Assembly: GCA_963716435.1 (NCBI GenBank)
Contig: OY970312.1
Coordinates: 985,576 to 1,049,575 of the forward strand
Direction of reading: 5' to 3'
Source of the DNA: an uncultured Thermoleophilia bacterium
GTDB lineage: Bacteria > Actinomycetota > Thermoleophilia > Gaiellales > Gaiellaceae
Length of the DNA stretch: 64,000 bases
Shown here: positions 31,596 through 49,562 of the stretch, one piece after another
Layout: every line of letters begins with the position of its first letter
Numbering within the stretch: the first letter of the stretch is position 1
Made by a program: the position numbers and the translations under genes
Notes under the pieces: model-generated
The model's input: only the letters and a program-made list of their open reading frames with translations
What the model was told of the DNA's origin: nothing
Database searches by the model: none

Positions 31596-34433
31596 ATGCT
31601 GTTCGAACGTCGCCTCGCTTGCGGGGTCAAGGCCGCACTCGCGGTCGCCACGGTCTTTCTGGTCTTCCCAGCCTTTGCCGGGGCTGCCGTCGCCTGCATC
31701 TTCGGCGCGGGAACCGCGACGATCTCGATGTCCGCGGCGGGCGATTCCGCCTCCGTCTCCGTGGGTACCGGCGCCAACCTCGGGCGCATCATGGTCGGTG
31801 TCGCGGCGTGCGGCGTCGCCACGACGGCGCTGACCGACACGATCGTCGTGACCGGAAACACGGGCGCCGAGACGCTCACGATCGACCTGAGCGGCGGCTC
31901 GTTCGCGCCGGGTGTGGTCGTGGAGGGCGCGGGTCTCTCCGAGATCGAGTTCTCCGTGGATCTGGGGACCGGGACCACGGACCGCATCACGATCACCGGC
32001 GGGCCGGGGAACGACAACGTCGTCTACGGAGCGCTCGGAGCGAACCTGAACGGCGACCTCGATGTGGACGTGACCCTGACCGGGGTCGAGCTCGGAACGG
32101 TGAACGCAAGCGGAGGCGACGACATCATCTCCGGGGCCGGCGACGTCGTCACCGGCGGCCCGTCCTCGATCCTCTTCACCCTGAACGGCGAGAGCGGCGA
32201 CGACACGCTCGCCGGCGGATCGGGCGACGACACGATCACCGGCGGAACCGGCACGAACGGTCTCGCGGGCGGCGCCGGCGACGACACGCTGACCGGCGGC
32301 CAGGGCTCGGACACGCTGGACGGGGGCCCGGGCGGAGACACGCTGAGCGGCGGCCTCGGAAGCGACACGATCGACGAAGGATCCTCGGCGAGCGGCTCGG
32401 ACAGCCTTGCGGGCGGCGGCGGCCTCGACACGGTCACCTACGCCGCGCGGTCGAACGGCGTGACGATCACCCTCGACGGTGTCTTCGACGACGGCGAGGC
32501 CGGCGAGGGCGACAACGTCGCGGCCGACATCGAGAACGCGTTCGGCGGAACGGGCGGTAACACGCTCCTCGGGAGCGCGAGCGCCAACACCCTCACGGGC
32601 GGTGCCGGCGTGGACACGATCGACGGCGCGGCCGGCGACGACACGATCTCGGGCTTCGCGGGCAACGACCGCCTGACGGGCGGCACGGGCAACGACACGG
32701 TTTCGGGCGGGGCCGATGCGGACGCGATCGTCGAAGGCGCGGGCAACGACGCAGTGGACGGTGGAACGGGCTCCGACACGCTCGACTACTCGGCCGTCGC
32801 GGGCGCGCTCACGGTCAGCCTGGGAACGGCGACGCCGCAGATCACGGGCGGCGCCGGCACCGATACGATCGCGGGCTTCGAGAACCTGATCGGCGGGACC
32901 GGGGCCGACGTGCTCTCCGGCGACGGAAGCGCGAACCTCCTCTCCGGGAACTCAGGCAACGACACGCTCCTCGGCGACCTCGGCGACGACACGCTCATGG
33001 GCGATGCCGGCACCGACACGGTCGACTACTCCTCCTTCCTCGGTGCCGTGACCGTCGTTCTCGGCGCGGGCTCGAGCACCGGCGCGGCCGACACCGACTC
33101 CCTGCTCGGAATCGAGAACGCGACGGGCGGCGGAGGCGACGACACGCTGATCGGCGACGCGGGCGCGAACGCGCTCATCGGAAACGGCGGCGCGGACACC
33201 CTCACAGGATCCGAAGGAAACGACACGCTCGACGGAGGCGGCAGCGCCGACGTGCTCGACTACTCCGGCGCGGCGGGCGGGATCACGCTCAACCTCGCCA
33301 CGGTCGCCGCGCAGAACACGGGCGGCGCGGGAACCGACACGATCGCCGCGTGCGAGTCGGTCATCGGCTCGAGCTACGCGGACGTCCTCACCGGAAACGT
33401 CGCGGACAACACGCTTGCAGGCGGCGCCGGCGACGACACGATCGCGGGCGCGCCCGGCGACGACACGCTCACCGGCGACGGCGGAACCGACACGGTCGAC
33501 TACACCTCGTCCACGCTCGGCGTGACCGTCGACCTCTCGCTCGCCGGGCCTCAGGCGACCGGGGCCGGAGCCGACACGCTCGGCGGGTTCGAGAACCTGA
33601 CCGGGGGCGCGGGCCGTGACGTCCTGCGCGGCGACGGCGGGGCGAACATCCTCACCGGCGCGGCCGGCAACGACGTGCTCGTCGGCACGGCCGGCAACGA
33701 CCTGCTCGACGCAGGCGCGGGCATCGACCTGCTCGACTACTCGGCCGAGTCGGACCCCGTTGTGCTCAGCCTGACGACGGGCTCCGCGACGACGACGGGC
33801 GGCACCGACACGCTCGTCGCCTTCGAGAATGCGACCGGAGGCAGCGCGGCGGACACGCTCACGGGCGACGGCGCGGCGAACGCGCTCACCGGCGGCGACG
33901 GAAACGACGTGCTGCGCGGGCTCGCCGGCGACGACACGCTCTCGGGCGGCCTCGGCGACGACCGGCTCTTCGGCTTCGCCGGCGGCGACACGCTCACGGG
34001 CGGCACCGGCGTGGACACGGCCGACTTTTCCACCTTCTACCCGGCGAACCAGCGCATCGGCGTGATCGTCAACCTCAACAGCGGCCGTGCGACCGGGGAC
34101 GGCGCCGACCTCCTCTCCGAGCTCGAGAACGTGCTCGGATCGAGCTTCGACGACCGGCTCGTCGGCACGAACGGCGCGAACCTCCTCGAAGGAACGGAAG
34201 GGAACGACGTCCTCTCCGGCCTCGGCGCGGCCGACACGCTGCGCGGCGGCGACGGAAACGACACCATCACCGGCGGAGGCGGCGCCGACATCCTGGCCGG
34301 CAACGCCGGAAGCGACCTCTTCTACGCGCGCGACAAGACGGCCGACCAGGTCCGGGGCGGCGCGGGGCGCGACACGGCCCAAATCGACCGCAAGCTGGAC
34401 CACCTCTCCAGCATCCAGAGGCGCCTGCCGTAG
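31596..34433 (+). CDS. Large RTX-type (haemolysin-type calcium-binding repeat) secreted protein
   Basis: N-terminal signal-like segment (AALAVATVFLVFPAFAGA). Dozens of GGxGxDxL nonapeptide repeats, for example GGSGDDTITGGTGTNGLAGGAGDDTLTGGQGSDTLDGGPGGDTLSGGLGSDT. Confidence 0.85.
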   Translation: MLFERRLACGVKAALAVATVFLVFPAFAGAAVACIFGAGTATISMSAAGDSASVSVGTGANLGRIMVGVAACGVATTALTDTIVVTGNTGAETLTIDLSGGSFAPGVVVEGAGLSEIEFSVDLGTGTTDRITITGGPGNDNVVYGALGANLNGDLDVDVTLTGVELGTVNASGGDDIISGAGDVVTGGPSSILFTLNGESGDDTLAGGSGDDTITGGTGTNGLAGGAGDDTLTGGQGSDTLDGGPGGDTLSGGLGSDTIDEGSSASGSDSLAGGGGLDTVTYAARSNGVTITLDGVFDDGEAGEGDNVAADIENAFGGTGGNTLLGSASANTLTGGAGVDTIDGAAGDDTISGFAGNDRLTGGTGNDTVSGGADADAIVEGAGNDAVDGGTGSDTLDYSAVAGALTVSLGTATPQITGGAGTDTIAGFENLIGGTGADVLSGDGSANLLSGNSGNDTLLGDLGDDTLMGDAGTDTVDYSSFLGAVTVVLGAGSSTGAADTDSLLGIENATGGGGDDTLIGDAGANALIGNGGADTLTGSEGNDTLDGGGSADVLDYSGAAGGITLNLATVAAQNTGGAGTDTIAACESVIGSSYADVLTGNVADNTLAGGAGDDTIAGAPGDDTLTGDGGTDTVDYTSSTLGVTVDLSLAGPQATGAGADTLGGFENLTGGAGRDVLRGDGGANILTGAAGNDVLVGTAGNDLLDAGAGIDLLDYSAESDPVVLSLTTGSATTTGGTDTLVAFENATGGSAADTLTGDGAANALTGGDGNDVLRGLAGDDTLSGGLGDDRLFGFAGGDTLTGGTGVDTADFSTFYPANQRIGVIVNLNSGRATGDGADLLSELENVLGSSFDDRLVGTNGANLLEGTEGNDVLSGLGAADTLRGGDGNDTITGGGGADILAGNAGSDLFYARDKTADQVRGGAGRDTAQIDRKLDHLSSIQRRLP
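32100..34330 (+). repeat. Degenerate 27-nt coding tandem repeats (RTX nonapeptides)
   Basis: Recurrent ggcggc..ggcgacgacacgctSacc units throughout the RTX gene. They are coding repeats, not a CRISPR array. Confidence 0.8.
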
Positions 34434-34461
34434 ACCCGGGATCGGCGAGACTACGGGCCGC

Positions 34462-35403
34462 ATGGGCTCGGTTTCCGTCGTGATTCCCACCTACCTTCGG
34501 CCGGAGCTGGTCGTCCGCGCCGTGCGCAGTGCGCTCGCGCAGGAGCCCGGCCCGGCCGAGGTGGTCGTGGTCGTGGACGGACAGGACTCCGAAAGCCAGG
34601 ACGCGCTGGCGGCGATCGGCGACACGCGAGTGCGCGTGGTCGTTCCGTCGGAGGGGCTCGGCAACGGCGGAGCCCGAAACGAGGGCGTGCGGCAGGCAAC
34701 CGGCGAATGGGTCGCGTTCCTCGACGACGACGACGAATGGCTCCCCGGCAAGCTCGCCGCACAGCTCGAGACCGCCGCGGCGTCGCGGTACGAGCTTCCC
34801 GTCGTGAGCTGCCGCCTGCTCGCCCGCACCGGCGCGGCCGAGTTCGTCTGGCCGGTCCGGCTGCCCGAGCCGGACGAGGACGTGAGCGAGTACCTCTTCC
34901 TGCGCCGCAGCCCGTTCGTCGGCGAGGGGCTGGTGCAGTCGTCGACCATCTTCGCCCCGCGACGCCTCGCCCTCGAGCTGCCCTTCGTCAAGGACCTCCA
35001 CACCGACTCCGACTGGATCCTGCGCGCCGTCGCGTATCCAGGCGCGGGCCTCGAGTTCGTCGCCGGCGAGGCGCCCTACGTCGTGTGGAACATCGAGTAC
35101 GAGCGCTCGCGGGTCACGTACTCCACGGAGGACTGGCGCGCGTCGCTCGCGTGGATTGAAGCTGCGAGTGTTACCCCGCGCGCGAGGACGTCGTTCATCC
35201 TCTCCCACGTGAGCGCGGCGGCCGCCCGCGAGCGCTCGTGGCGCGCGTTCGTGTCACTGCCGCGCACCGCGCTGCGCTATCACCGGCCGTCGCTCGTGGA
35301 CACGGTCGTGCACACGGCGAACTACTTCGTCCCGACCCGCATGCGCCGCGCAATCGCCGCGCGGGCCGGAATCGGACGGCGGGCCGCAGACCGCCAGGCC
35401 TAG
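34462..35403 (+). CDS. Glycosyltransferase family 2
   Basis: SVVIPTYLRPELVVRAVRSAL ... VVVVDGQDS ... GNGGARNEGV ... VAFLDDDDEW (the DxD region) is typical of GT2. Confidence 0.85.
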   Translation: MGSVSVVIPTYLRPELVVRAVRSALAQEPGPAEVVVVVDGQDSESQDALAAIGDTRVRVVVPSEGLGNGGARNEGVRQATGEWVAFLDDDDEWLPGKLAAQLETAAASRYELPVVSCRLLARTGAAEFVWPVRLPEPDEDVSEYLFLRRSPFVGEGLVQSSTIFAPRRLALELPFVKDLHTDSDWILRAVAYPGAGLEFVAGEAPYVVWNIEYERSRVTYSTEDWRASLAWIEAASVTPRARTSFILSHVSAAAARERSWRAFVSLPRTALRYHRPSLVDTVVHTANYFVPTRMRRAIAARAGIGRRAADRQA

Positions 35404-35486: not shown

Positions 35487-35810
35487 GTGGTTGCGGCGAT
35501 GGCAACGCTGACGGGTGGCGCCGACGACTTGGCCGGCCTGGCGAGGCTCGCGCAGGAGACGATGGAGGACTGGCTGCGCGAGTACGAGGGCTATCGCGGC
35601 CTGATCGTCTTCACCGACGAGCAGAACGGGCGCTCCCGCGTCGTCACGCTCTGGGATACGCGCCAGGACGAGTTGCGCGCCCGCCAGAGCCGCGGAGCAA
35701 TGCGCGACCAGGTTGCGGTCATGGCGGGGATGACGGTCGAGGGCATGGAGGTATACGACGTGCCAGGCACTCGAGGTCGTTCCCGGCTGACCGGCCGGCC
35801 GCGCGGCTAG
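35487..35810 (+). CDS. Small hypothetical protein (possibly ABM/Dabb-like fold)
   Basis: 107-aa ORF and the last core gene before the att fragment. Weak resemblance only (GLIVFTDEQNGRSRVVTLWDTRQD). Confidence 0.4.
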   Translation: MVAAMATLTGGADDLAGLARLAQETMEDWLREYEGYRGLIVFTDEQNGRSRVVTLWDTRQDELRARQSRGAMRDQVAVMAGMTVEGMEVYDVPGTRGRSRLTGRPRG

Positions 35811-35829
35811 CCGCGCCGGCGCGAAAAGC

Positions 35830-35892
35830 GGAGGGGGAGGGATTCGAACCCTCGATCCGCCTTACGACGGATAACGGTTTTCGAGACCGCTG
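35830..35892 (-). other. 3' fragment of tRNA-Ser(CGA): anticodon stem-loop through the acceptor 3' end. Predicted att core at the distal junction of an integrated element.
   Basis: Reverse complement reads GCGGTCTCGAAAACCGT (anticodon loop CTCGAAA), a variable arm ATCCG..CGGAT, T arm GAGGG-TTCGAAT-CCCTC, acceptor 3' strand CCCCTCC and discriminator G. The matching 5' acceptor GGAGGGG and the D arm are absent from the next ~100 nt. Confidence 0.75.
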
Positions 35893-35955
35893 ACAAGCAT
35901 GCGGTTTGCAGGCATCCTGCCGCTCGTTCGCCAGTTGGTTCGCCAGCGGGATCGT

Positions 35956-36529
35956 CTATTCCTCGGTGGAGCCGGGCTCGCCTCCCCTCGTTTGAGCCTC
36001 GATACATCTCTCACGAAGCCGCTGGAGCGCTTCGGTTCGTCCTTCTCCTGGATCATTGGACTGGAGGAAGACGGGAAGCTTCTCGACCGCGTCATCCGAT
36101 GGGGCGATTAGCGCTTCGTCCAGCGCCCACTCCCACACAATCGCCTCGTTCCGATACAAGCGGTGAGGCCGCTCATCATCGGGCCGCTCGTCGAAGGACG
36201 GGAGCTGGAGAACGATATGGCCGATCTCGTGGAGCGCCACGAAGTACGAGAGGCTCGGAGCTTACGGTCGGCACGGTGATCTCGCGCTTCTCCACGCTCA
36301 AGGAACCCTCCGCATCGAGGAGGCGAATGTCCTTCTCCAACAAGGAGATCCCGTGCTGAGCGGCAAGATCCGCCATGTGCCGACGGAGTCTCGCGGTCTC
36401 CTCATGCGGAAGCGGGTCGTTCGATGGCCCCCGGAACACCGAGTCGAGCAGCGCGAGAGGGTCGATCTCCTCGTTCGTCACGAGTGGGCCGAGTCGCGCT
36501 CGCTCACGAGCTTCTTCAGCTCGCCGCAT
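35956..36529 (-). pseudogene. ImmA/IrrE-like zinc metallopeptidase, frameshifted
   Basis: The two ORF pieces 36176..36529 and 35956..36240 join across a 1-nt frame change near 36245-36260. The downstream piece carries YFVALHEIGHIVL (HExxH). Confidence 0.6.
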
Positions 36530-36969
36530 CTGACCGCGAACTGCTCGATCACCTCCTCGATCTGCTGGCGGGCATGGGCAATCTCCGGCGAGCCCTCCAC
36601 GGGCGATCGGGCATGCAGCTCAAACCACGTGAGGATCCGCCCCTCCCGCTCCACAAATGAAGCGTCGTCGGGTGTCTTCCTCCGCAAGAACGCGCGCCAG
36701 GACTCCTCGCGTTTCTCGTCCCCGTTGCAGCTTCCGCATGCGAGCACGAGGTTGCCAAGATGGTTACCGCCGTCCGCGTCCGCATGGTCGACGTGGCCCT
36801 CGCGCTGATCGCGGCGCAGCTCCTTGCCGCAGTATGCACACCGCGCTTCGAAGTGTTCCCAAAGCGCGTCAACGCTGCCGGGACCGGGATCGACGATCTC
36901 GTCGACGGCCCTGCGCATGAGGTTCTTCGCCTGCGAGACCGTGTACTTCCGCCGTTGCCGGGACGCCAC
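36478..36969 (-). CDS. HNH endonuclease
   Basis: CAYCGKEL ... HVDHADADGGNHLGNLVLACGSCNGDEK matches the HNH pattern (CxxC ... H-N-H ... CxxC). GTG start 36969 has a purine-rich RBS. The 3' end overlaps the ImmA-like ORF. Confidence 0.8.
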   Translation of the reverse strand: MASRQRRKYTVSQAKNLMRRAVDEIVDPGPGSVDALWEHFEARCAYCGKELRRDQREGHVDHADADGGNHLGNLVLACGSCNGDEKREESWRAFLRRKTPDDASFVEREGRILTWFELHARSPVEGSPEIAHARQQIEEVIEQFAVRCGELKKLVSERDSAHS

Positions 36970-37219
36970 TAGAACCCTCTCTGGCAGTAGTCGGTGATGA
37001 GGCCACTCTAGGGGAGTCGTTCGTTGGTCAAGGCGACGGTTGCCCCTGCGCACAAACCTGCAGAGCGTGCGCGCCAAGGCAGGCCTTGATCAACGGAGAG
37101 GCGAGGGCGCGAACCGAACCCGGAGTTCAGGCCGGCGGATCCGATCCTTCTTGACACAGATGGTGGTCAGGTGAGACAGTCGCCTCGTCAAGTCCTGTGG
37201 GCCCTCGGGCTCGCAGGAC

Positions 37220-37999
37220 TTGGCATTTGTGGGCGCGAACCGGCTTCGGAGGAGGGCGGCGATGGTCACGCTCATGCCCGCATTGCGGGACCGCCTGCGC
37301 GTTGAGCCGAGCCTCTCATCCGTCGGCGGCAGCCTTCCGGTGCTGTTCTTCGGCGACGCACTCTCCGCCCAGGTTGCGACCATCGGGCTGAATCCTTCGA
37401 GGTTCGAATACCTCGACCGCAACGGGGCGATCCTCGCCGGTTCGGCGCAGCGCTTCTCGACGCTGGCTTCGCTCGGAGCTCGGTCTCGCGGCCACCTCAG
37501 CAACGCACAGGCCGACGAAGCCATCGATGTCATGCGCGCCTACTACGACGCCGGCAAGCCCGTCTACGGCTCCTACTTCCGGCACCTCACGAACTTCCTC
37601 CGCGGCATGGGCGCCAGCTACATCGACCGGACCGCGACTCACCTCGATCTCGTTCAGGAGCCGACCGATCCAGTGTGGAACGGACTCGGCGACGACGAAC
37701 GCGCCCGGTTGCTGGCACGCGACCTGCCCTTCCTCGTGTGGCAGCTCGAACACCTGCCGCACCTGCGGGTCGTCGTGTGCGCCGGCGCGACCGTCTCGCA
37801 CCACGTGCGAAGCCACATCGAAGTGGACGAGCGCGATCGCGGCAGGATGAAGCGAATCCGATGGTGGCTGGGAACGGCACGAGTCGGCCATCGTGAGCTT
37901 CCGATCGGCGGCTGGAACTACCCACTCGACCGCCCGACTGGTCTCGGCACCGCGGGCGAGGTCGAACTCGGCGAGATGTTCGCTCGGGAACTCCTGTGA
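37220..37999 (+). CDS. Hypothetical protein, possibly uracil-DNA glycosylase-superfamily fold
   Basis: VLFFGDALSAQVATIGLNPS resembles motif A of MUG/TDG-type UDGs (GINPG). A late WNYPLDRPTGLG could be motif B. Weak, by eye only. Confidence 0.35.
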   Translation: MAFVGANRLRRRAAMVTLMPALRDRLRVEPSLSSVGGSLPVLFFGDALSAQVATIGLNPSRFEYLDRNGAILAGSAQRFSTLASLGARSRGHLSNAQADEAIDVMRAYYDAGKPVYGSYFRHLTNFLRGMGASYIDRTATHLDLVQEPTDPVWNGLGDDERARLLARDLPFLVWQLEHLPHLRVVVCAGATVSHHVRSHIEVDERDRGRMKRIRWWLGTARVGHRELPIGGWNYPLDRPTGLGTAGEVELGEMFARELL

Positions 38000-38077
38000 C
38001 CCAGGCCATTCCTTGGCGGACTCAGTCCCTACTGTCTCTTGCGGTGGTGACGGCGCAACTCGCAAAGTCGAGCGCGG

Positions 38078-38425
38078 TCAGCTGGTCCGTGTGCGCAGAA
38101 GCTTCTCGATCCGCTGGTCCGGCACGCGCTCGAGCTCGTCGATGAGCTCGGCGACGCGCCCACCTAGCGCGGTTGCTGGGTCGCCCGGCCAGTAACGGCC
38201 GCCCTCCTCGCTGAGCAAGCCGAGAGCGACGAGACCGCGGATGTGGTCGTCCGCACCGCCGTTCTTGCTCACGCCGCAGCTCTCAGCGATATCGGATTTC
38301 GACCATCCCTTCTTCGAAGGTGTGGCGTTCAAGACGAAATGGAGCGCGAGCCGTCGAGGCCGCGATCCAAAGATCCAGTCGCGGGCGGTCAGAGGCTTCG
38401 GGCCGCGTTGCTGGCCGACAGTCAT
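38078..38425 (-). CDS. Winged-helix (MarR/ArsR-like) DNA-binding protein
   Basis: 115 aa starting at ATG 38425 (MTVGQQRGPK). WSKSDIAESCGVSKNGGADDHIRGLVALGLLSEEGGRY resembles an HTH plus wing. Confidence 0.55.
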   Translation of the reverse strand: MTVGQQRGPKPLTARDWIFGSRPRRLALHFVLNATPSKKGWSKSDIAESCGVSKNGGADDHIRGLVALGLLSEEGGRYWPGDPATALGGRVAELIDELERVPDQRIEKLLRTRTS

Positions 38426-38426
38426 G

Positions 38427-38443
38427 TTAGAAATAGATTCTAA
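38427..38443. promoter_or_regulatory. Perfect palindrome TTAGAA-ATAGA-TTCTAA between divergent genes (candidate operator)
   Basis: Lies 1 nt from the wHTH start codon (38425) and overlaps the first base of the ATG at 38443. It is the AT-richest spot of the window. Confidence 0.5.
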
Positions 38444-39021
38444 TGAGACAGATAGCCGAGAACGATTCGGGGTTCCTGCGGCTCGTCGCCGGTGACCGAG
38501 TCGAAGAGGCTGTGGAGGCGCGGCGCGATCCCGGCTTCGAGGCTCCGGCTCCCACCGCGCGCCCGTCTGAGCGCTGTGAGCCATGGCCGGTCGACGATCA
38601 GGGCTGTCTGAGATCACTCGCGGCGGCGGCGGTCGAGCTTGGTGTCTCTGTGGAGTTGGCGTCGGTCGTCGTCGTCGAGCGGTCGCTTCTTGCCGACGAT
38701 CTTTCGGCGCGCGGCTTCGACGAGATTTCGGCGAGACTCGATGCCGAGGCTGCGCGTGCGAGCGTGACGATCGAGCTGTCTGAGTCGCTTAGCGCCTACC
38801 TGTGTGCGTTATCGAGTCACGACCGAGGCACGTCTCGATCGCTACCGCGACTCATTGCACTGCCGATGCGTCTGACTGAGCGGATCGGTGCGGATGGCGG
38901 GGCGGCGCGCCTCGATGCGATGCTTCTGGCGTCCGCGCTTAGTTGGGAGCGAGCCGCAGTTCTGGAGGGCCGCACCATGAGCGAGTGGGCGACCTTGAAG
39001 GCGCTTGAGCTGGCCGGCTGA
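38443..39021 (+). CDS. Hypothetical protein
   Basis: 192-aa ORF divergent from the wHTH gene. No motif recognised. Its 3' end overlaps the convergent ORF 38842..40260 by about 180 nt, so one of the two may be shorter. Confidence 0.4.
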   Translation: MRQIAENDSGFLRLVAGDRVEEAVEARRDPGFEAPAPTARPSERCEPWPVDDQGCLRSLAAAAVELGVSVELASVVVVERSLLADDLSARGFDEISARLDAEAARASVTIELSESLSAYLCALSSHDRGTSRSLPRLIALPMRLTERIGADGGAARLDAMLLASALSWERAAVLEGRTMSEWATLKALELAG

Positions 39022-40260
39022 GTTCCGCTCGTCGGTCGCGACGTCCGCGTCTGCGTCTCGCAGCCTCGTCGCTTCCCGAGGGATAGTGTCGAAGCCTGTC
39101 CGGAGCTTGGACATCTTGAGAATCGCGCGCTCGCGCGCTGCCTGTCCTGCTCGGGTCGCGAGTCGTATCTCAGCGGCCGCGACATCGGGGAGCGCGAACT
39201 CGCGAGCATCAGTTCCGACCGCCCAACAGTTGTGCGCGACGATCTGCTTCGTGCCGACCGGCGGCTCGGCTTCGGGATGATGCCCACACGGGCAGGGGCG
39301 ATTCAGGAAGAGCGCGCGCCGTATCGCCTCACCGGTGGCGCCTAGCGGCCCTGCGTTGCCCAGGACCGCAGGGTGGTAGGTGTGTACACCGAGGCCCGTC
39401 TCCTCGTCGTCGCGCTCGGGAAGTTCCGCCGGGGGGTGGCGGAAGGACATTCCGTGGAGACCAGCGCAGGTTGCGGCGACGCCGCTGGCGAGCATGGCGA
39501 GGTGCCCGTCACCCACGCACGAGACTGCCGCAGGCCGCCCGGTAAGCCGCTGGAGGCGTAGCGCGAGACGCGCATAGCCGGCGAGCTGGCGTCCACTCTG
39601 CGAGGTGTTCGCGGCGATGATCCAGTAGCCCGTCACGCCGTCGAGCTCGGCGTAGGCCGCCACGAGCCAGTCGATCACACCGGGAACGGCGGCATGGCGT
39701 CCCTGCACGATGATGGTCGCGTAGAGTTCGCGCCTCCCAATCTCCCCAGCCGCCGCAGCCCATGCCCGGCGATCCGCGAACTCCGTTGCAGCTAAGCGAG
39801 CGAGAAGCAGATCGTTCTTGCGTCCGGCCCGCCCTTCGGTCTCGAGCACATGACCGGGAGTTGTCAGGATCGTCGCTCCGCCCTCGATCTCTGCGGCGAG
39901 ATGATCGGCCGCGTAGCGCTCGGCAAAGGCTGCCCGGAGAGGATCTCCGTCCGCAACAAGTTGAACACCGGGACGATGAACCTTGAGGCGCGCAAAGGCG
40001 CCGCCGCGCTTCGGATGATCGACTGGGAGCTGGTTTCGCCAAGCCTGTGCCGGCAGAACAACCCCCATACCAGCCTTGAGCGCTTCAGAGACGAGGCTCT
40101 GGTCGAGCACCGCATGCGCGAGCGGCTTTGCGATCGCGCCCACGACCCGACGGTCGAACGAGGCGAGAACCAGCCCGGACCGGTAGCCCGGCCAGGCGAT
40201 CAGGCTTCGGCGCCCGATCTCGGGATGCTGCGGAGCTGCAACTAGCCCAGATTCACTCAT
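38842..40260 (-). CDS. Hypothetical protein (alternating strand/helix character, CPCGHH cluster)
   Basis: Start placed at ATG 40260 (MSESGLV). Contains NRPCPCGHHPEAEPPVGTKQIVAHNCW. Divergent from res. No confident family. Confidence 0.5.
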   Translation of the reverse strand: MSESGLVAAPQHPEIGRRSLIAWPGYRSGLVLASFDRRVVGAIAKPLAHAVLDQSLVSEALKAGMGVVLPAQAWRNQLPVDHPKRGGAFARLKVHRPGVQLVADGDPLRAAFAERYAADHLAAEIEGGATILTTPGHVLETEGRAGRKNDLLLARLAATEFADRRAWAAAAGEIGRRELYATIIVQGRHAAVPGVIDWLVAAYAELDGVTGYWIIAANTSQSGRQLAGYARLALRLQRLTGRPAAVSCVGDGHLAMLASGVAATCAGLHGMSFRHPPAELPERDDEETGLGVHTYHPAVLGNAGPLGATGEAIRRALFLNRPCPCGHHPEAEPPVGTKQIVAHNCWAVGTDAREFALPDVAAAEIRLATRAGQAARERAILKMSKLRTGFDTIPREATRLRDADADVATDERNSAGQLKRLQGRPLAHGAALQNCGSLPTKRGRQKHRIEARRPAIRTDPLSQTHRQCNESR

Positions 40261-40364
40261 TCGCTCGGAACTCTGCCCGGGCCGCCGGATGGAGCTGGAT
40301 CGGGCGCGCATGTGCCTCGATCCGATAGCCAGCAATGTGCCCCTCTCGTACGATGCTTCGGGCC

Positions 40365-43328
40365 ATGCCTGACGTAGTCATCGAGAACCCGATTCTGAAC
40401 TCGCCGTTTCGCGAGCCTGCGCGGCACTGGCGCTTCGGGGACACAGGGATCACGAACGAGATCGTCGAAGGGCGCCGGCTGAGCTCGTACTTCATGCCGA
40501 TCCCGGCCTCGAAGGTTCGCGGTAAGCAGCTCGAGCTCGAGACGCAGTGGACGCGCGATCGGATCGAGGAGAACCGGCTGATCAACCAGATCCGTGAGCG
40601 TGTCACCGACTGGCGCAACCTCAACTGGCCCGGTGTGACGCCGACCACCCGGCGCCTGCTCGAGTACTGGACGGACGAGACCCGGGAGCGGCCGTTGTTC
40701 TTCTGCCAGGTCGAGGCGCTCGAGACGGCGATCTATCTGACCGAGTGTGCGACCAAGCAGGGGGACGCGTGGATCGAAAATGAGCTGCGCAGGCTGGCCG
40801 ACGACCAAAACCCTGGGCTCTACCGGGTGGCTTTCAAGATGGCGACTGGAAGTGGCAAGACGGTCGTGATGGCGATGCTGATCGCCTGGCAGACGCTGAA
40901 CAAGCAGGCCAATCCGCAGGATGCGCGGTTCTCCGACGCCTTCCTCGTCGTCGACGCCCGGGATCACGATCCGTGATCGGCTCCGCGTCCTGTTGCCTGA
41001 GGATCCCGAGAACTACTACCGAGCGCGCGATATCGCCCCGAGCGCCGACATCGAGCGCTTGCGCCAGGCCCGGATCGTCATCACGAACTTCCACGCCTTC
41101 CAGCTGCGCGAGGCGCAGGTCGCGTCGAAGACGACGAAGGAGCTGCTCACGCGCGGAGGCGAGAACCCGTTCGTGGAAACGCCGGATCAGATGGTGCGCC
41201 GGGTCTGCCGCGGCCTCGGCACGAAACGACAGATCCTCGTCTTCAACGACGAGGCGCACCACTGCTACATGCACCGCGTGGGCGGCGAGGAGGAAGCGCT
41301 CAAGGGAGATGAACGCAAAGAGGCGGAGCAGCGCGACCGCGAGGCGCGGGTCTGGGCGACCGGCCTTCAGGCGGTCACTCGCAAGCTCGGCGTCAAGGTC
41401 GTGTACGACCTCTCCGCTACGCCGTTCTTCCTGCGCGGCTCCGGGCTGGCCCGAGGGAACGCTTTTCGGCTGGGTCGTCAGCGACTTCTCGTTGATCGAC
41501 GCGATCGAGGCGGGGATCGTGAAGATCCCGCGCGTCCCTGTCGCCGACGACGTTGTGGACAAGGCGGGACCGACCTTTCGGAACCTGTGGCCCAAGATTC
41601 GGAACGAGCTTCCGAAGAAGCGAGTGAAGGACGCGTCCGCCCGAGCCGCCGCGACTCCCTGCCGAGTTGGAGGCGGCGCTGCACGCGCTGTACGGCAACT
41701 ACGAAAAGTCGTACCAGGATTGGGAGAAGCGCGAGCAGGCCGCGCGGCGCGGCACCACGCCGCCCGTCTTCATCGTCGTGTGCAACAACACGAGCGTCTC
41801 CAAGCTCGTCTACGACTACGTCGCTGGTTGGGAGAAGCAGCTCGACGACGGAAGTCGGGTCGTCGTGCCGGGCGAGCTGCCGCTTCTCTCGAACGAGGAA
41901 GGCGGAGCGTTCATCCATCGCCCGCGGACGATCTTGATCGACTCGCGGCAGCTCGAGTCGGGGGAGGGGATGAGCGCGGACTTCAAGGCGATCGCGGCCG
42001 GCGAGATCGAGGAGTTCAAGCGCGACTACCGCACCCGCTATCCCGGCCGTGACGCCGACGCGCTCACCGACGAGGATCTGTTGCGGGAGGTAATGAACAC
42101 GGTCGGCAAGCCCGGCAAGCTCGGCGAGCACGTGCGGTGCGTCGTCTCCGTCTCGATGCTCACCGAGGGCTGGGACGCGAACACTGTCACCCACATCCTG
42201 GGCGTCCGCGCCTTCGGGACGCAGCTCCTTTGCGAGCAGGTCGTCGGCCGAGGTCTACGACGGACGAGCTACGTGCCCAACGACGATGGACTCTTGACGC
42301 CTGAGTACGCAGAGGTCTACGGCGTGCCGTTCAGCTTCATTCCGACATCAGGCTCGGCAACGGATCCGCGACCGGCGCCGGTCATGACTCGGGTGCGCGC
42401 GCTGCCGGAGCGGGCGGCATGCGAGATTCGCTTCCCCCACATCGTCGGTTACCGCTACGAGCTCGACGGTGAGCGGATTGGCTGGAGCTTCGGCGAGGAG
42501 CATCGGCTCGTGCTCTCGACGCAGGACGTCCCTACGGAGACCGAGGTGGCCGGAATCATCGGCGAGCACGACATTCACGACCTCGAAGGGCTGAAGGCGC
42601 GCCGAGAGCAGGAGATCGCGTATGCACTTGCCCGCGAGCTCGGCGCCCGGTACTTCTCGGACCGTCCGTGGCTTTTCCCTCAGCTCGTAGAAGCGACGCG
42701 CGATTGGATGCAGACTTCCCTGACCCTGCACGATCGCGTCTTCCCGCAGCTGCTCCTCCTTCACGAGAAAGCGAGTGAGGCGGTCGAGCGGATCGTGCGT
42801 GGGATCCTGTCCGCCGATCGGAGCGCGCCTCGGCTCATCGCGATCCCCGACGCAGCCGATCCCGAGGGCTCGACGGCGGAGATCGACTTCGACACGTCCA
42901 AGCCCGTCATGGTCACGGACCCGGAGAAATGTCACGTCGAGTACGTCACGGGCGACTCGAACTGGGAGCACGTCCTCGCTAGTCGGCTCGAAGGCATGCC
43001 CGAGGTGCGCGCCTACGTGAAGAACCAAGGGCTTGGTTTCACGATTCGGTACACATTCGACGCAGAGTCGCGCGCATACGTCCCCGACTTCATCGTCAAA
43101 GTTGATGACGGACACGACGACGACCTCCTCAACCTCGTGATCGAGGTCACCGGACAGGCGCGCCCCGACAAGGTCGAGCGCGTTGCGACTGCCCGGGAAC
43201 AGTGGGTTCCCGGCGTGAACGCCCTCGGCCGGTTTGGCCGCTGGGACTTCATCGAGATCACCGATCCCTGGAATGCAGAGAACGCAATTCGCACCCACCT
43301 CTCCTCGCATGAGGAGCTCGCTGCGTGA
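40365..43328 (+). pseudogene. res: Type III-like restriction enzyme Res subunit (SF2 helicase), 3 frameshifts
   Basis: N-terminal VIENPILNSPFREPARHW. Walker A MATGSGKT. DEAH box FNDEAHHC. Motif VSMLTEGWDANTVTHILGVRAF ... QVVGRGLRR. The reading frame moves 0>1>2>0 near 40955, 41445 and 41650. Confidence 0.8.
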
Positions 43329-46020
43329 GCCCGCGGAAGCGAGCAACCAAGTCGGGGCCGACGCCGGTCGAGCCGATCCGTCACAAGGACAAACGATCCA
43401 ACATCCCCACGAACGAGCTGCGCGCCATGCTCGCCGACGACGAGCGCACGCCGAAGGCGATGCTGTACCCGCGTGACCCGAGCCTCGACCCGCAGCTCGT
43501 CTGGAAGGGCAAGGACGAGCAGGACGCGGCCGACCTCGAGGTGCCGGCCGTCCCGATCTACATCCAGGAGAAGATCCACCCGCGGGTGCTCATCGAGAAC
43601 CTGCGCCAGACGGCGGCCGCCGGCGAGCCGGAGCCCGAGCTGACGCTCTTCGACGACTTCAACGGCATCGCCGTTCGAGGAACTCGTCGACTTCTACCAG
43701 CACGAGCAGAACTGGTCGAACCGGATGATCCTCGGCGACTCGCTGCTCGTGATGACGAGCCTCGCCGAGAAGGAAGGCCTCAAGGGCAAGGTCCAGACGA
43801 TCTACATCGACCCGCCGTACGGCATCAAGTTCGGCTCGAACTGGCAGGTCTCGACCCGCAAGCGCGACGTCACGGACGGCAAGGCTCAGGACGTCACCCG
43901 CCAGCCCGAGCAGGTCCGGGCGTTCCGCGACACCTGGGAGCTCGGCATCCACTCCTATCTGACGTACCTGCGCGATCGGCTGGTCGTCGCGCGCGACTGC
44001 TCACCGAGACGGGCTCGATCTTCGTCCAGATCGGCGACGAGAACGTCCACCTCGTCCGCTGCGCTGCTCGACGAGGTATTCGGAGCCGAGAACTTCGTCT
44101 CGCCTGATCACGTTCAGGAAGACAGCTGGCGCAACGGGCGAGTCTCTCGCAGGCACGGCCGACTATCTCCTCTGGTATCGCGAAGGATCGTCGAACGTGA
44201 AGTACCGCGCGCTCTATCGACCCAAGGAGGTCGGCGGAGACGGTGCCGATGCGTACGACCTGCTTCGACTTGGCCGATGGGTCGACGCGTCGTATCACCC
44301 GCGACGAGCGTCGAGATGTCGCTCGACTTCCGCCCGGGTCGCGTCCGTTCCGAATCGAGCCCTCTGACAAGTCAGAGCGTCGGGCGCCAGAAGGGCGAAG
44401 GCGCGGCTTCATGGTTCGCCGTGCCGTTCGACGGGCGCGAGTTTCGACCGACCATGCAGGAGCGGTGGAAGACGAACGAAGCGGGTATGGCGCGGCTCGC
44501 AGTCAGCCGAACGAATCGGCCGTAGCCGGGAACACCCTTCGGTACATCCGGTACATCGACGACTTCCCAGCGTCCCCACTCACAAACATCTGGGACGACA
44601 CAGGAGTAGCGGGCTTCGGTGAGCGCAAGATCTACGTCGTTCAAACCAATCCGAAGGTCGTCGAGCGCTGCCTCCTCATGACGTACTGACCCTGGCGATC
44701 TCGTGCTCGACCCGACGTGTGGCACCGGCACGACGGCGCTACGTCGCGGAGCAGTGGGGTCGGCGCTGGATCACGATCGACACCTGCCGCGTCGCGCTCG
44801 CGCTCGCGCGCACGCGCCTGATGGCGCAAGTACCCGTACTACCTGCTCGCCGACTCGTCCGAGGGCTCCGAAGGAGGCCGAGCTGACCGGCAGATGCCGT
44901 CGACCAGCCGACGGCGACGTTCGCAGGGCTTCGTCTACAAGCGCGTGCCGCACGTGACGCTGAAGTCGATCGCGCAGAACCCGGACATCCACGAGGGCAT
45001 GAGCCGCGAGGAGATCGACGCGGCGATCGCTCGGCACGCCGAGACCGGAGACGCTGTTCGACCAGCCGTACGAGGACCGCAAGAAGGTGCGCGTCACGGG
45101 CCGTTCACGGTCGAGAGCCTGTCGCCTCACCGGACGCTCGACGGCCGAGGACCGCCGCGCCCGCGGACGTTGCGGAGTCGGCGAGCAGCGCTTCGTCACC
45201 GACGATCCTCGACAACCTTCGCAAGGCCGGCGTCCAGAACACCGTGAAGGACGAGCACCTCGACTTCGACTGGCTCGATCCGTACCCCGGCGCCTGGGTC
45301 CAGGGCGTGGCGCGTTCACCGACGCGGACGGCGCGGAGCAGGACGGTCGCCGTCAGCATCGGTCCGGAGTACGGCACCGTCGGATGCCGACCAGGTGCGC
45401 GAGGCCGCGAAGGAGGCGAGCAAGGGCGCGGGCGCCGACCTGCTGCTCGTGTGCGGCTTCGCCTTCGACGCGAACGCGGGTGAGATCGCGCAGGAGTTCC
45501 AGCCGATCGATGGTTCGGGCTGGGCGGTCGCCGCGGGCGAGCGCAAGCTCGGCAAACTCCAGGTCCTGCTTGCGCGCATGAACCCCGACCTCGCGATGGG
45601 CGACGAGCTTCTGAAGAAGACCGGCGCCGGCAATCTGTTCATGGTCTTCGGCGAGCCCGACGTCGAGATCCGCCGGCCGGAGGACGGCCATCGTTCAGGT
45701 CGAGATCCGCGGCGTCGACGTCTACGACCCGACCACGGGCCAGGTCCGCTCGAGCATCGACCGACGACATCGCCTGCTGGTTCATCGACACCGAACTACA
45801 ACGGCGAGAGCTTCTTCGTCCGCCACGCGTACTTCACCGGCGCCGACGACCCGTACGACACAGCTCCGCAGAGCCCTGCGCGCCGACATCGACGAGGCGG
45901 CCTGGGCGACGCTCTACACGACGGTGAGCCGCCCGTTCCCGGCCGCCCGAGACCGGCAAGATCGCGGTGAAGGTCATCAACCACTACGGCGACGAGGTGA
46001 TGAAGGTCTTCACCGTGTAG
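43325..46020 (+). pseudogene. mod: Site-specific DNA methyltransferase (Mod-like, DPPY motif), at least 8 frameshifts
   Basis: GTG start overlaps the res stop (GTGA). Recognisable pieces lie in different frames: [83 protein letters not shown] and the C-terminal KIAVKVINHYGDEVMKVF. Confidence 0.8.
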
Positions 46021-46179
46021 CTACACCAGGCACCGGTGGGCGTCCGACTGGATCACCCCCAGGAGGTCGACGGTTCGAGTTCGGCTAGCTCCATCGCCCC
46101 GCTGCGCGGGCATGCCGTCTTCCGCGGTGTCCTTCGCCGCGAGCCGGTGAGCCGCGCCCCGTCGCGCGGTCGCGGCGGC

Positions 46180-47584
46180 GTGACGCGACATGCAAGACTT
46201 GACCCGTTCACTCGCGTGTCGTTCCAGCCGAGCCCGTTTCAGCTTGTCGCCGAAGAGCGGCTCCTGAACGAACCGATCTACAGGAAGGCGCGCGACAAGA
46301 TCGTCGAGTTCATCACGCAGTTGCAGGCGGCGCGGAAGCCGCAGGACTATGTCGGGCTGCACCGCAGCGCGCTGGCGCACCTCATCGCTTACCAAGAGGC
46401 CGCTGACGAGGCCATCGCGCAGCGGATGGAGATCCGCCGCCGGATCCGGGAACTCGCGCGCGAGGAACCGAAGCCGATCGAGGCCATTCAGGAGCAGCAG
46501 GCGCTGCTCGACCGCGTCGTCAACCAGGAGGCGACCCTGAAGGCCGTACACCATCTAGTCCGCGCCGTCGGCGATGGCATCGCCTGGCGAGCGCTGCGCT
46601 ACGACCGCCGCGCCTTCACGGTGCTCGGCAAGGGCGAACGCGTTGGTCGTTTGGCCTCAGGTATCGGTCGCGACGCCGAGCTGACGGCGCTCGCCAACCT
46701 CTGGGAGGAGGAGGGGCAGTTCGCAATCCACAACGACATGACCAACTGTCTGCGTCATGGCGACCTGACCGCCATTCGAGAAGCCGGCAGTCAGGTCGAA
46801 GTGACGATCTACGAAGTCAAGGCGGGGACGTCTCACGACGAGGCGCAGCTGCGACGGCTCGACAGGGCGACCGAGCTACTGCGAACGCACCTCGACCCGA
46901 CCGGCGGCAGCGACGGCGGCATGCTGCGAGTGACGTCGGTACCGGCGCGCTACGAGACGTTCTCATCTGCGCTACCCGGTCTGATTCAGCGGGCCAAGGC
47001 GGTGGGATTCGATTGGATCCTCCCGCACCCGTGCCTACTCGTCGGCGCCGTCGATTACCGCGTGTGGGGCCGCGGCGACGTTGATGACTTCACTGAGCGC
47101 TTCGCGAAGATGCGGGCCGAGGTTGGCTGGCCAGGAGAGGAACCCGAGATCCTCGACTGGATGTCCTCGCTGCGGCGCATGCGCGACCGCCACCACAGCT
47201 TCAGCTCGCTGGCTCCCTTTGCGATCTTCCCGCTCGCGCCCGAGGATGTCGCCGATGTCATCTCGGGGTCGATCGATCTCTTCTTCTCGCTTCACCTGCC
47301 GCGGCTCGAGCAGGCCTCGAGCCGGGATGGTGTCAGCGTCCGAGTTGCCCGCCCCCCTGGATCGTCGACGCTCTTCCTTGAAGCCAGCCGCGGCGGACGC
47401 GGTGTGACCGTGCCGCCACACTTGCGCGAGCAGATGATGACCGAGCTTCGTCACGCCCGATTGCATCTTCGCTGCCATCGACGAGATCCTGAAGCTGAAC
47501 GAGGCGAACCCGGGCGAGGCATACGACAGCCGCATCGTTGTCTTCGCCGACGAGCGGCAAGTGTGGGAGGTCGAGAACACGTAG
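46180..47584 (+). CDS. PD-(D/E)xK-like hypothetical protein, one frameshift near the 3' end
   Basis: AIHNDMTNCLRHGDLTAI ... VEVTIYEVKAG fits a D...ExK nuclease core (D at about 46762, EVK at about 46813-46821). Near 47445 the sensible reading switches frame (...MMTE / VTPDCIFAAIDEILKLNEANPGEAYDSRIVVFADERQVWEVENT*). The start is uncertain (GTG 46180 or 46216). Confidence 0.5.
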
Positions 47585-47716
47585 GGAGCGGGCCGCTTCG
47601 GCCACGCAGCGGACCGCAAACCGCCTGGCCGCGCTAGCAAGAAAACCTCGAGCCCCTTCTAAAGGAAACGTGATCGCGATCGACGCCCCATCTGAAGCTA
47701 CTGCTTCAATCAGATC

Positions 47717-48751
47717 GTGAGCTGGCAAGACCGCCTTCCCGATGGACTCTCCGACATCGAAGCGACCGAGGAGGGGTTTCAGGCGAGCCTTTCGCTTCCG
47801 GTCGACGGCGACGGCTTCTTCGGCCGCGAGTGCCGCGCCTGTGAGCAGCCGTTCAAGATGAACGCCGACGAGTGGGAGGCGCTCCCCGACGACCCACGAG
47901 TCACGTGCCCGTACTGCGGCGAGCAGCCCGAAGATGCCAACGACTTTATGACACCGGATCAGCAAGAGCGGGTCGGGGCCGCGATCAACGCGCTGGCCGA
48001 GCAATACGTGCACGGGGCGTTCACGGACACGCTCTGGCAGTCGTTCGGCTCGCGGCCACGCCGAACGGGTGGCGGCATGTTCGGCATCGAGATCAGCGTC
48101 GCTACCGGAGCGCCGCCCCCAATCAGGGTGCTGCCCGAATACGTCGAGGAGAAGGTGCGACGAACGATCACCTGCAGCAACTGCTCAACGACTTACGCTG
48201 TCTACGGGGCGAGCGCCTTCTGCCCAGTCTGCGGCCCGCGCGCAGCGCTTGCGACCGTCATCGAGGCGATCGAGGCAGCACGCACCGCCCTTGGCCTGGA
48301 GGATCTCCTCCCCGAGGACGCGCGTGAGCAGGCGCGTGCCGCAGGTGTCTTCGGCAACGTCGCCGCCGACACGATCAAGCGCGTCGTCACCCTCTTCGAG
48401 GTCTTCGCCCGGAACCAGCTCGAGGAGCGAGTATCGACTCACGTCGACCCGCTGCGGAAGGCGGGACGCGGCGTGTTCCAGCGGCTGGACGATGCTGACG
48501 ATCTCTTCGATCAGCATGCGGGACTGCGGCTCTCCGCACTGGTCAACAGCAAGACGTGGGCGCGCCTGCTCGTGACATTCCAACAGCGGCACGTGCTCGT
48601 TCACCGCCAGGGGCTGATCGACGACCAGTACCTCCAGCGCGTGCCCGCGGCTCGCCAACGAGTCGGGCAGGCTCTCGTCGTGACGCGCAAAGAGGCGGAG
48701 CAGGCGCTCGACGATCTCGAACGGCTCGTGCACGCACTCGCCTCGACGTAG
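47717..48751 (+). CDS. Double zinc-ribbon protein with a C-terminal HEPN-like domain
   Basis: CRACEQ...CPYCG and CSNCS...CPVCG ribbons. The C-terminal helical domain ends in FQQRHVLVHRQG, which matches the HEPN Rx4-6H motif (nt 48587-48604). Confidence 0.6.
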   Translation: MSWQDRLPDGLSDIEATEEGFQASLSLPVDGDGFFGRECRACEQPFKMNADEWEALPDDPRVTCPYCGEQPEDANDFMTPDQQERVGAAINALAEQYVHGAFTDTLWQSFGSRPRRTGGGMFGIEISVATGAPPPIRVLPEYVEEKVRRTITCSNCSTTYAVYGASAFCPVCGPRAALATVIEAIEAARTALGLEDLLPEDAREQARAAGVFGNVAADTIKRVVTLFEVFARNQLEERVSTHVDPLRKAGRGVFQRLDDADDLFDQHAGLRLSALVNSKTWARLLVTFQQRHVLVHRQGLIDDQYLQRVPAARQRVGQALVVTRKEAEQALDDLERLVHALAST

Positions 48752-48764
48752 CGATGCTGGCTGC

Positions 48765-49562
48765 GTGATTTGCGAAACGACATCAGGAGGCGACATCCGG
48801 CCGGAGATCGTGTCTGCGTTCGAGCCGCAGTTCGCCGCCTGCGACGCTCTGTACGAGTTCGCCCGCTCGCACCGACCCAGCCGGTCTGCGGCATCCGTGC
48901 CTGCGGACCGTCTGATCGTCGCGACGTATGCCCGCGGCTCGAAGACCTACCAGGGTGTACTGCGGCTCGCCTACGTCGGTTACGGCGCCCAGGCGTTCAT
49001 GCTCGGCCGCTCGCTGTACGAGGACATGCTTGTCGCACACTGGATCAAGCTCAATCCTGAGCAGGCGCCTCGGCAGCTCAACGACCATCGCCGCATGACC
49101 ATTGCCGCCTACCAGGGGGAGCTGAGCAGATTCGGGCTGGATGCGCCAAACGAGGAGCCGATCAACCGGGCGGAACGCGACCGGCTACGTCAGGAGTTTG
49201 GCTCTGGACCTTGGACGAAGCTGAGCATGGACAAGCTGCGGCGCGCAGTCGAGTCGGAGTTTCCGGAGCTGGAAGGCCACCGGCGGCTCCTGCTCCAGGT
49301 CGACGCACTCTTGCACCGTCACGCGAACCTCATTGTCCACCACTCGTTCTTGAGCTTGGGCGGTGCCGTGGCAAACGCGAGCGAGGATGGCATTACCTAC
49401 GACGTCGGCGTCTCGACGCGTTTCATCCCGCAGGCGCTCTTCATCGCCTTCTTCAGCTACATCCATCTGACGAGCCTGGTCGTACACGGCAGCGCGCGGG
49501 AAGAGCTCGCGCAGCTGTGGCACGAGCATCGCGACGCATTCACGGTGACACGAGCCGCCTAG
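48765..49562 (+). CDS. DUF5677/AbiV-like helical protein
   Basis: Starts 13 nt after the HEPN gene stop. All-helical, with the motif GRSLYEDMLVAHWI reminiscent of DUF5677/AbiV-family proteins. Assignment by eye. Confidence 0.45.
   Translation: MICETTSGGDIRPEIVSAFEPQFAACDALYEFARSHRPSRSAASVPADRLIVATYARGSKTYQGVLRLAYVGYGAQAFMLGRSLYEDMLVAHWIKLNPEQAPRQLNDHRRMTIAAYQGELSRFGLDAPNEEPINRAERDRLRQEFGSGPWTKLSMDKLRRAVESEFPELEGHRRLLLQVDALLHRHANLIVHHSFLSLGGAVANASEDGITYDVGVSTRFIPQALFIAFFSYIHLTSLVVHGSAREELAQLWHEHRDAFTVTRAA

Follow-up and report, generated by a model that had tools for sequence, protein, structure and literature searches.

The stretch of DNA analysed here, referred to below as the window, comprises 64,000 nucleotides (G000:C1:985576-1049575) of a genome assembled as a single contig of 2,638,422 bp (2.64 Mb), and positions are those of the window unless they are marked as genome positions. 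In its right-hand part, two chromosomal genes are followed by a tRNA fragment, by genes of predicted restriction and other defence functions, and by a module of predicted transfer genes; the coordinates of these features and of the DNA beyond the window end are collected in Table 1.

On the minus strand, from 35890 to 35825, lies the 3′ part of a class II tRNA-Ser(CGA), comprising the anticodon stem-loop (GCGGT-CTCGAAA-ACCGT, anticodon CGA), a long variable arm, the T arm, the acceptor 3′ strand, the discriminator G, and three further nucleotides. A preliminary description of this DNA had placed about 63 nt of such a tRNA at 35830-35892; its identity and strand were correct, whereas the exact limits are 35825-35890 (66 nt). 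The same description had seen no 5′ acceptor strand or D arm beyond the fragment, and the bases upstream indeed bear no likeness to either. The tRNA search that it proposed was performed with ARAGORN, which calls no tRNA at this site and, in the window, only a tRNA-Val and a tRNA-Ser(GGA). Likewise, Rfam at gathering thresholds gives no RF00005 match at the fragment and reports in the window the same two tRNAs and an SRP RNA, while a permissive Rfam scan of 35600-36200 yields only a sub-threshold alignment to tRNA-Sec (29.4 bits; gathering score, 47). A complete tRNA at this position is ruled out by ARAGORN and Rfam. Separately, the plus strand at 35829-35882 gives a sub-threshold match to the Rfam model Plastid-psbl-rps4 3UTR (40.9 bits; gathering score, 68), a model that evidently holds an antisense plastid tRNA-Ser, and the match is biologically meaningless here.

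Table 1. Features of the window and of the adjoining off-window DNA (window positions unless marked as genome)
Feature	Position	Strand	Basis or remark
GT2 glycosyltransferase gene, chromosomal flank	34087-35403	+	GC3 core-like; orthologues in G003 and G005
ABM-domain protein gene, chromosomal flank beside attR	35487-35810	+	GC3 core-like; 72% match in G007
Displaced tRNA-Ser(CGA) 3′ fragment, left copy of the 66-bp direct repeat (very probable attR core)	35825-35890	-	65/66 identical to genome 1099266-1099331; no tRNA call
Candidate arm-type sites, tandem TGGCGAAC (putative P arm of attP)	35926-35933 and 35938-35945	-	one of two tandem pairs in the genome
Putative cargo block 1	35891-54700		GC 0.66; no match in five same-genus genomes
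HNH endonuclease gene	36478-37077	-	Pfam/PADLOC scans
Type III res gene, frame-broken as assembled	40335-43328	+	intact homologue in G006
Type III mod gene, frame-broken as assembled	43313-46017	+	intact homologue in G006
PDC-M14A-like gene	47717-48751	+	Pfam/PADLOC scans
DUF5677 gene	48765-49562	+	Pfam/PADLOC scans
Tiamat TmtA gene	50092-54747	-	PADLOC full-length match, 1386 bits
Predicted ICE backbone module	54705-60900	+	GC 0.75; 79% DNA identity to G009:C26:12550-18488
DUF932 gene, frame-broken as assembled	~55146-56091	+	intact in G009, 342 aa
ParB-like gene, frame-broken as assembled	~55845-57696	+	intact in G009, 732 aa
TrwC/MOBF relaxase-helicase gene, frame-broken as assembled	58019-60853	+	intact in G009, TrwC+AAA_30, 975 aa
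Putative cargo block 2	61.2 kb to genome 1057.2 kb; part in window, 61231-64000		
AAA ATPase gene with DUF5925	61231-62337	+	block 2
Short pAgo gene, SPARDA-type	62648 to past window end	-	E = 1e-164
Island beyond the window	further 49.7 kb, to genome 1099265		
Off-window order, first part			DREN-APAZ, AbiEi/AbiEii, T4CP, SCO6880-like, VirB4-like, TrbL, ParA, HTH, M78 peptidase
Off-window order, last part			2634-aa Rhs, NlpC/P60, HTH_3 repressor, Toprim, Xis-like, Int, DUF2188, attL core in tRNA-Ser(CGA)
Putative cargo block 3	genome 1066.5-1091 kb		M78 peptidase, several large unknown proteins, 2634-aa Rhs-repeat protein, then HEAT-repeat genes

A BLAST search of the whole genome with the fragment returned one strong further match, at genome 1099266-1099331, on the same strand and over 66 nt with one mismatch (E = 5.8e-27). 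This second copy is contained in an intact 90-nt tRNA-Ser(CGA) called by ARAGORN at genome c[1099269,1099358], which is situated off the window, 77.9 kb to the right of the fragment (window-equivalent ~113.7 kb) and on the same strand. The first base of the anticodon stem (tRNA position 27) opens the repeat, which extends to 3 nt beyond the tRNA 3′ end. Its sole mismatch is located in the loop of the variable arm, where the fragment has A and all six intact tRNA copies have T; the A of the fragment must stem either from a mutation at a later time, from a polymorphism of attP, or from an error in the consensus. Five genomes of the same genus have a tRNA-Ser(CGA) that is 99-100% identical to the intact gene. 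A second ARAGORN call of Ser(cga), at genome 2181572-2181660, has a mismatched acceptor stem and lacks a proper variable arm, is probably false, and was rejected as a second functional gene; the gene at genome 1099269-1099358 is the only credible tRNA-Ser(CGA) of the genome.

In the direction of the tRNA, the order is right flank, intact tRNA (attL), 77,800 bp, 3′ fragment (attR), and left flank. An intact tRNA and a fragment of the same tRNA thus lie on one replicon in the same orientation, and this geometry is the standard outcome when the integrating attP bears the 3′ part of a tRNA. The use of a regenerated tDNA and a displaced fragment as the end-marks of an island is the principle of Islander (PMC4383910). 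The preliminary description had anticipated this arrangement, with core DNA on the left, the element on the right, a second core copy further right, and an intact tRNA-Ser(CGA) with its integrase at the far end off the window, and all of these were found as predicted; its estimate of an island of at least 28 kb was right but low, the element measuring 77.8 kb.

Integrase, candidate arm sites, and predicted transfer backbone

A tyrosine integrase of 389 aa is encoded at genome 1096566-1097735 (+), on the island side and 1.5 kb from the intact tRNA-Ser(CGA), as expected of a tDNA island, in which such a gene lies inside the island near the intact tDNA; a tyrosine recombinase in this place had also been foreseen in the preliminary description. 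In this protein, the PF00589 catalytic domain is complete (Pfam, E = 8.5e-23) and is accompanied by a SAM-like core-binding domain, the latter a borderline match. Its best relative of solved structure is the integrase of Tn1549 (PDB 6EN0; E = 2e-9, residues 106-357), and comparison with 6EN0 indicates that all catalytic residues are present, i.e., Arg in GLRrgEL, Lys in PKS..GrRrvP, the HeaRHTF motif, His in GHS, and Tyr in rYGHL. No other complete integrase is encoded in the island. Directly upstream of int, a 77-aa ORF with a match below the Pfam cut-off (E = 7e-5) to HTH_17, the family to which excisionases belong, is a candidate for the excisionase.

Relatives of the integrase in named genomes belong to metagenome-assembled genomes (MAGs) of Thermoleophilia, Solirubrobacterales, Gaiellales, and other Actinomycetota; they mostly adjoin tRNA genes (SeC, Val, Trp, Ser), one of them a tRNA-Ser(CGA). 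The exact protein also occurs on two short contigs from other public runs, ERR15459708 and ERR12036786, one of which would, by arithmetic, end inside the att core. Apart from the complete gene, a second, sub-threshold catalytic fragment of a tyrosine integrase (24.8 bits) is present at genome 1052975-1053067 (window-equivalent ~67400-67492), within the island between a Lar-like ORF and abiEi, and may be a relic of an element that delivered cargo.

Comparison of the 300 bp of island DNA beside each core copy identified the motif TGGCGAAC, which is present twice in tandem at each core, with all four copies on the tRNA strand. The motif has 132 copies in the genome, and tandem pairs with a spacing of at most 15 nt occur only twice, at genome 1021501/1021513 (35926-35945 in the window) and 1099157/1099168, at distances of 36-48 nt (attR) and ~98-109 nt (attL) from the respective cores. 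Since the only two tandem pairs of the genome flank the two cores, both ends of the island are tied to one attP independently of the tRNA repeat. The pairs share one orientation, flank the core on either side, and present the picture expected of P and P′ arm-type sites of a heterobivalent (lambda-type) integrase, to which the integrase would bind.

The identity of the element was approached through a genome of another genus of the family (G009). Its contig C26 encodes intact DUF932, 732-aa ParB-like, and 975-aa TrwC relaxase proteins, the last with an AAA_30 helicase domain. Its contig C8 encodes a 722-aa T4CP (T4SS-DNA_transf, TraG-D_C, TrwB), a SCO6880-family protein, a VirB4-like AAA_10/TraG P-loop ATPase, TrbL/VirB6, ParA, an HTH protein, an NlpC/P60-SLT hydrolase, Toprim, and a tyrosine integrase, and ends at tRNA-Asp(GTC). 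A 48-nt tRNA-Asp 3′ fragment on the relaxase contig, beyond the relaxase end, indicates a sister element of the same architecture at a different tRNA. The two elements share 69-79% DNA identity over the relaxase, T4SS, and integrase-side (NlpC/P60 to Toprim) modules, int excluded, and the same order of 3′ tRNA fragment, relaxase, T4SS, Toprim, int, and intact tRNA. By contrast, the sister element has another integrase (34% identity in the catalytic domain) and targets tRNA-Asp(GTC), lacks the large cargo blocks, and has intact genes. Every backbone gene of the present element other than int has a collinear homologue in G009; the genes for the TrwC, T4CP, VirB4-like, and TrbL proteins are among them, and each of these four is split over at least two frames in this assembly. 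In G009, another 47-nt tRNA-Asp 3′ part, 100% identical, was observed at a contig start (G009:C34:135-181) and may mark a second element or a tandem site at tRNA-Asp.

No FtsK_SpoIIIE domain (PF01580) was found in the island, the matches in this genome lying at 1.96 Mb, 176 kb, 42 kb, and 30 kb, and no capsid, terminase, portal, or tail genes were found among the ~75 island ORFs scanned with Pfam or PADLOC. The class of actinomycete integrative and conjugative elements (AICEs) of the pSAM2/SLP1 type was therefore rejected, the island having a relaxase and T4SS genes instead of an FtsK/SpoIIIE-like TraB, and a prophage was rejected because phage structural genes are absent from the Pfam and PADLOC scans. 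Judged from its gene content, with TrwC and T4SS homologues and neither FtsK_SpoIIIE nor phage structural genes, the element is assigned to the T4SS/MOBF-type ICEs. The comparison with actinomycete integrative elements made in the preliminary description accordingly holds for the tyrosine integrase and the tRNA, whereas the FtsK/TraB type is replaced by the T4SS/MOBF type.

Flanking chromosome and the relocated block

The GC content falls at the fragment from 0.70-0.73 on the left to 0.65-0.67 on the right, a drop already recognised in the preliminary description, and the island as a whole has a GC content of 0.673 compared with 0.717 and 0.706 in its flanks. The 77.8-kb island, searched in five pieces, has no blastn match at E<=1e-30 in the five same-genus genomes, and each of these genomes contains one intact tRNA-Ser(CGA) and no fragment; the island is foreign DNA, missing from close relatives in which the tDNA is uninterrupted. 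The possibility, raised at the outset, that 35.9-64 kb is conserved core DNA does not hold, since the island has no match in these five genomes. Patches of the island match other genera of the family, namely ~21 kb in three modules in G009 and 5.6 kb in G006.

The left flank is syntenic at 79-85% between 20.7 and 34.4 kb in five of the five same-genus genomes, in agreement with the earlier assignment of the DNA left of the fragment to the core. The 1.4 kb between this syntenic region and attR is occupied by the GT2 and ABM genes. The GT2 orthologues in G003 and G005 sit at another position, and no orthologue of the ABM gene was found in the same-genus genomes; the codon GC3 of both genes is 0.86-0.87 and core-like, and the two genes are chromosomal flank rather than island DNA. 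The right flank is syntenic in all five same-genus genomes from just past the tRNA, and in three of them the synteny starts at the tRNA itself.

In G001-G005, a block of ~56 kb follows the 3′ side of tRNA-Ser(CGA) and parts this tRNA from the DNA corresponding to the left flank of the window. The block encodes response regulators, asparagine synthase, flippases, epimerases, and large repetitive surface proteins. In the present genome, it is found inverted and 870 kb away, at genome 95441-152273 (56.8 kb; compared with G004:C1:184224-240399), where it separates two genes that are neighbours in G001, G004, and G005; an overlap of 5 bp, GTRCT, marks the point of insertion. Its tRNA-side breakpoint lies ~8 nt from the tRNA end, i.e., 5 nt past the att core, and no bases were lost: the fragment keeps ...TTTTCG and the moved block begins GTTC.... 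The block was rejected as a mobile element because no recombinase is encoded at its ends, where the genes are those of response regulators, asparagine synthase, flippases, and epimerases; for want of a recombinase, its relocation is treated as a separate rearrangement. A mechanistic link between the arrival or activity of the ICE and the relocation, i.e., ICE-associated mobilisation of flanking chromosomal DNA, is considered very improbable.

In the empty-site comparison proposed in the preliminary description, the tRNA is intact in the five relatives, whereas a site with joined flanks does not occur among the genomes searched, because in the relatives the tRNA and the left flank are held apart by the ~56-kb block. 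In addition, the TCG beyond the repeat at the fragment is common to G004, but the relatives vary at this position, and it was too weak a sign for the 3′ flank of the fragment to be regarded as the native tRNA end.

Since the 3′ neighbourhood of the tRNA is rearranged here, with the breakpoint of the moved block so close to the tRNA end, the fragment might be regarded as a relic unrelated to site-specific integration, e.g., a partial tRNA duplication left by the rearrangement of the block. This explanation is extremely unlikely: the limits of the repeat, exactly at the anticodon stem and immediately beyond the tRNA, match those known from thousands of mapped tDNA islands (PMC4383910), the integrase, the Xis-like gene, and the paired arm sites are at the expected places, and the same layout recurs in the sister element of G009 at another tRNA. 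The half tRNA is very probably the attR of a 77.8-kb ICE integrated into the only credible tRNA-Ser(CGA) gene of the genome, within its 3′ part.

Cargo and frame-broken genes

The cargo was identified by Pfam and PADLOC scans, and the type III genes were compared with the intact res and mod of G006. At least three cargo blocks were distinguished, which, by homology, appear to consist mostly of genes for defence against phages and plasmids and of an Rhs toxin gene. In block 2, the short pAgo is accompanied by a DREN(DUF4365)-APAZ partner (E = 2e-146), the pair constituting a SPARDA-type system, and AbiEi/AbiEii are also encoded there. Downstream of the island Rhs gene, a stretch of 904 bp encoding a HEAT-repeat protein (L010:18049-18952; genome 1087624-1088527) is 100% identical to genome 783024-783928, and the adjacent Rhs C-terminal region is 87-91% identical at 783 kb, which suggests that Rhs toxin/immunity cassettes have been exchanged between the ICE and a chromosomal rhs locus.

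The cargo blocks have a GC content of 0.64-0.66 compared with 0.73-0.75 in the backbone, and this mosaic, together with the integrase remnant near abiEi and the sister element in G009 without cargo blocks, would also agree with a different history, in which the 77.8 kb is a tandem array or an accretion of at least two islands at the same tRNA, the fragment deriving from an older and the integrase from a younger element. Such a history is very unlikely, however, given that the genome-wide BLAST search reveals no third copy of the core between the two ends, that matching TGGCGAAC tandem pairs occur at the two outer ends only, and that the relaxase, T4SS, and integrase-side modules shared with G009 are spread over the whole length, each occurring once.

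Several genes of the element are broken in the assembly. Compared with intact homologues in G009 or G006, frame hops are found in the genes for TrwC, ParB, DUF932, T4CP, the SCO6880-like protein, the VirB4-like protein, TrbL, NlpC/P60, res, and mod, in the stretches 40347-46017 and 55146-60853 of the window and at genome 1057806-1063648 and 1091895-1092952. The transfer genes contain ~28 frame changes in ~13 kb and the type III res gene at least three, compared with 0.12 per kb in a core control, whereas the genes for Int, Toprim, ParA, HTH proteins, TmtA, the pAgo pair, AbiE, and Rhs are intact. In a DNA alignment of 2.9 kb, 17 of the 24 gaps are single extra bases in the present genome, nearly all of them G or C and outside homopolymers. 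A net excess of insertions exists in two backbone segments and not in core DNA, and the amino-acid identity within the broken segments is 87-95%. Exact-product look-ups of two frameshift-spanning ORFs gave no match, and the homologue search returned no near-identical copy of the element, the best match having 88% identity over 32% of the query. Paralogues within the genome were considered as a source of mis-polishing, and none were found.

Because single-base insertions in one direction are unlike natural decay, the extra G and C bases in the transfer and restriction-modification genes are probably consensus errors of the assembly. It is possible, but on balance unlikely, that the insertions are real +1 events that killed the transfer and restriction genes, leaving a fossil of the same element in the form of an immobile or merely excisable defence island. 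The density of frame changes relative to the core control and the intactness of the Int, Toprim, ParA, HTH, and defence genes are consistent with such a fossil; on the other side, nearly all events are a single extra G or C shifting the frame in the same direction, whereas decay is deletion-biased and of mixed sizes, the amino-acid identity inside the broken segments remains high, and the relatives of the integrase stem from long-read MAG projects.

Proposed integration route and known elements

For the 77.8-kb ICE, a route of integration can be proposed from the arrangement of its ends. The circular form would carry an attP consisting of the 66-bp tRNA copy, from the anticodon stem to past the 3′ end, with two TGGCGAAC arm sites on each side, and the 389-aa integrase would carry out recombination between this attP and the chromosomal tRNA. 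With its start at the anticodon stem, the repeat corresponds to the 'A' sublocation class (PMC4383910); from the extent of the repeat only, the crossover would most likely occur in the 7-nt anticodon loop, bracketed by the inverted arms of the anticodon stem. At the right end (attL, beside int), the 5′ part of the tRNA would thereby receive a functional 3′ part, and the leftover 3′ fragment would stay at the left end (attR). Excision would be the reversal, presumably aided by the 77-aa HTH_17-like protein, and transfer would proceed via the TrwC relaxase, the T4CP, and a Gram-positive-type T4SS, as predicted from gene content, with these genes frame-broken as assembled.

Islands integrated in tDNAs have been mapped by Islander (Hudson, Lau and Williams 2015, PMC4383910, in which the sublocation classes of Williams 2002 are cited). 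The present element shares with them an intact regenerated tRNA and a displaced 3′ fragment in direct orientation, a tyrosine integrase gene beside the intact tDNA, and, as in the 'A' class, a repeat beginning at the anticodon stem, and differs from them in nothing essential. T4SS/TrwC-type ICEs at tRNA 3′ ends are known in actinobacteria (Bordeleau et al. 2012, PMC3429521), including Fcci3350 of Frankia sp. CcI3, a 71-kb ICE of the T4SS type with TrwC/MOBF, VirD4, and VirB4 (Ghinet et al. 2011, PMC3218068; PMC3429521). By description, these ICEs share with the present element the tyrosine Int, TrwC, T4CP, a VirB4-like ATPase, a similar size, and the location at a tRNA 3′ end. In contrast to them, the host here is an uncultured lineage, the relatives of the island proteins belong to Thermoleophilia, Gaiellales, and Solirubrobacterales, the cargo is rich in predicted defence genes (Tiamat, SPARDA, AbiE, type III R-M, Rhs), and the transfer genes are frame-broken in the assembly. 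The AICEs pSAM2 and SLP1 likewise have a tyrosine integrase and an attP with the tRNA anticodon region to the 3′ end, in hosts of the same phylum; AICEs, however, are generally known to transfer double-stranded DNA by a single FtsK/SpoIIIE-like TraB and to measure 9-24 kb (also PMC3429521), whereas this island is devoid of an FtsK_SpoIIIE domain and has a relaxase and a T4SS.

The integrase of the present element can also be compared with that of Tn1549. Tn1549 Int has low target specificity and is not known to be tRNA-directed. The two integrases have the same catalytic residues at low identity (PDB 6EN0, 6EMY, 6EMZ), and both belong to conjugative elements.

The arrangement as a whole is textbook, an ordinary new example of a well-known kind of element that changes no principle. 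The exact limits of 77.8 kb would make the Tiamat, SPARDA, and HEPN genes and the broken restriction-modification and transfer genes the cargo and backbone of one tRNA-Ser(CGA) ICE, and would add a family of T4SS/MOBF ICEs rich in defence genes, from uncultured Thermoleophilia-like actinobacteria of high GC content. Within this family, the sister elements appear to have swapped the integrase/att module (tRNA-Ser versus tRNA-Asp) and kept the transfer backbone. To our knowledge, neither this host nor this element is contained in the Islander database, and the present example may be useful to island-mapping databases and to studies on the travel of defence systems. Elsewhere in the genome, three more tyrosine integrase genes, at 1361422-1361988, 1901301-1901777, and 2096671-2097201, adjoin tRNA-Met (1361210-1361284), tRNA-Pro (1901948-2022), and tRNA-Gly (2095482-2095561), respectively, and the genome probably has more tDNA islands.
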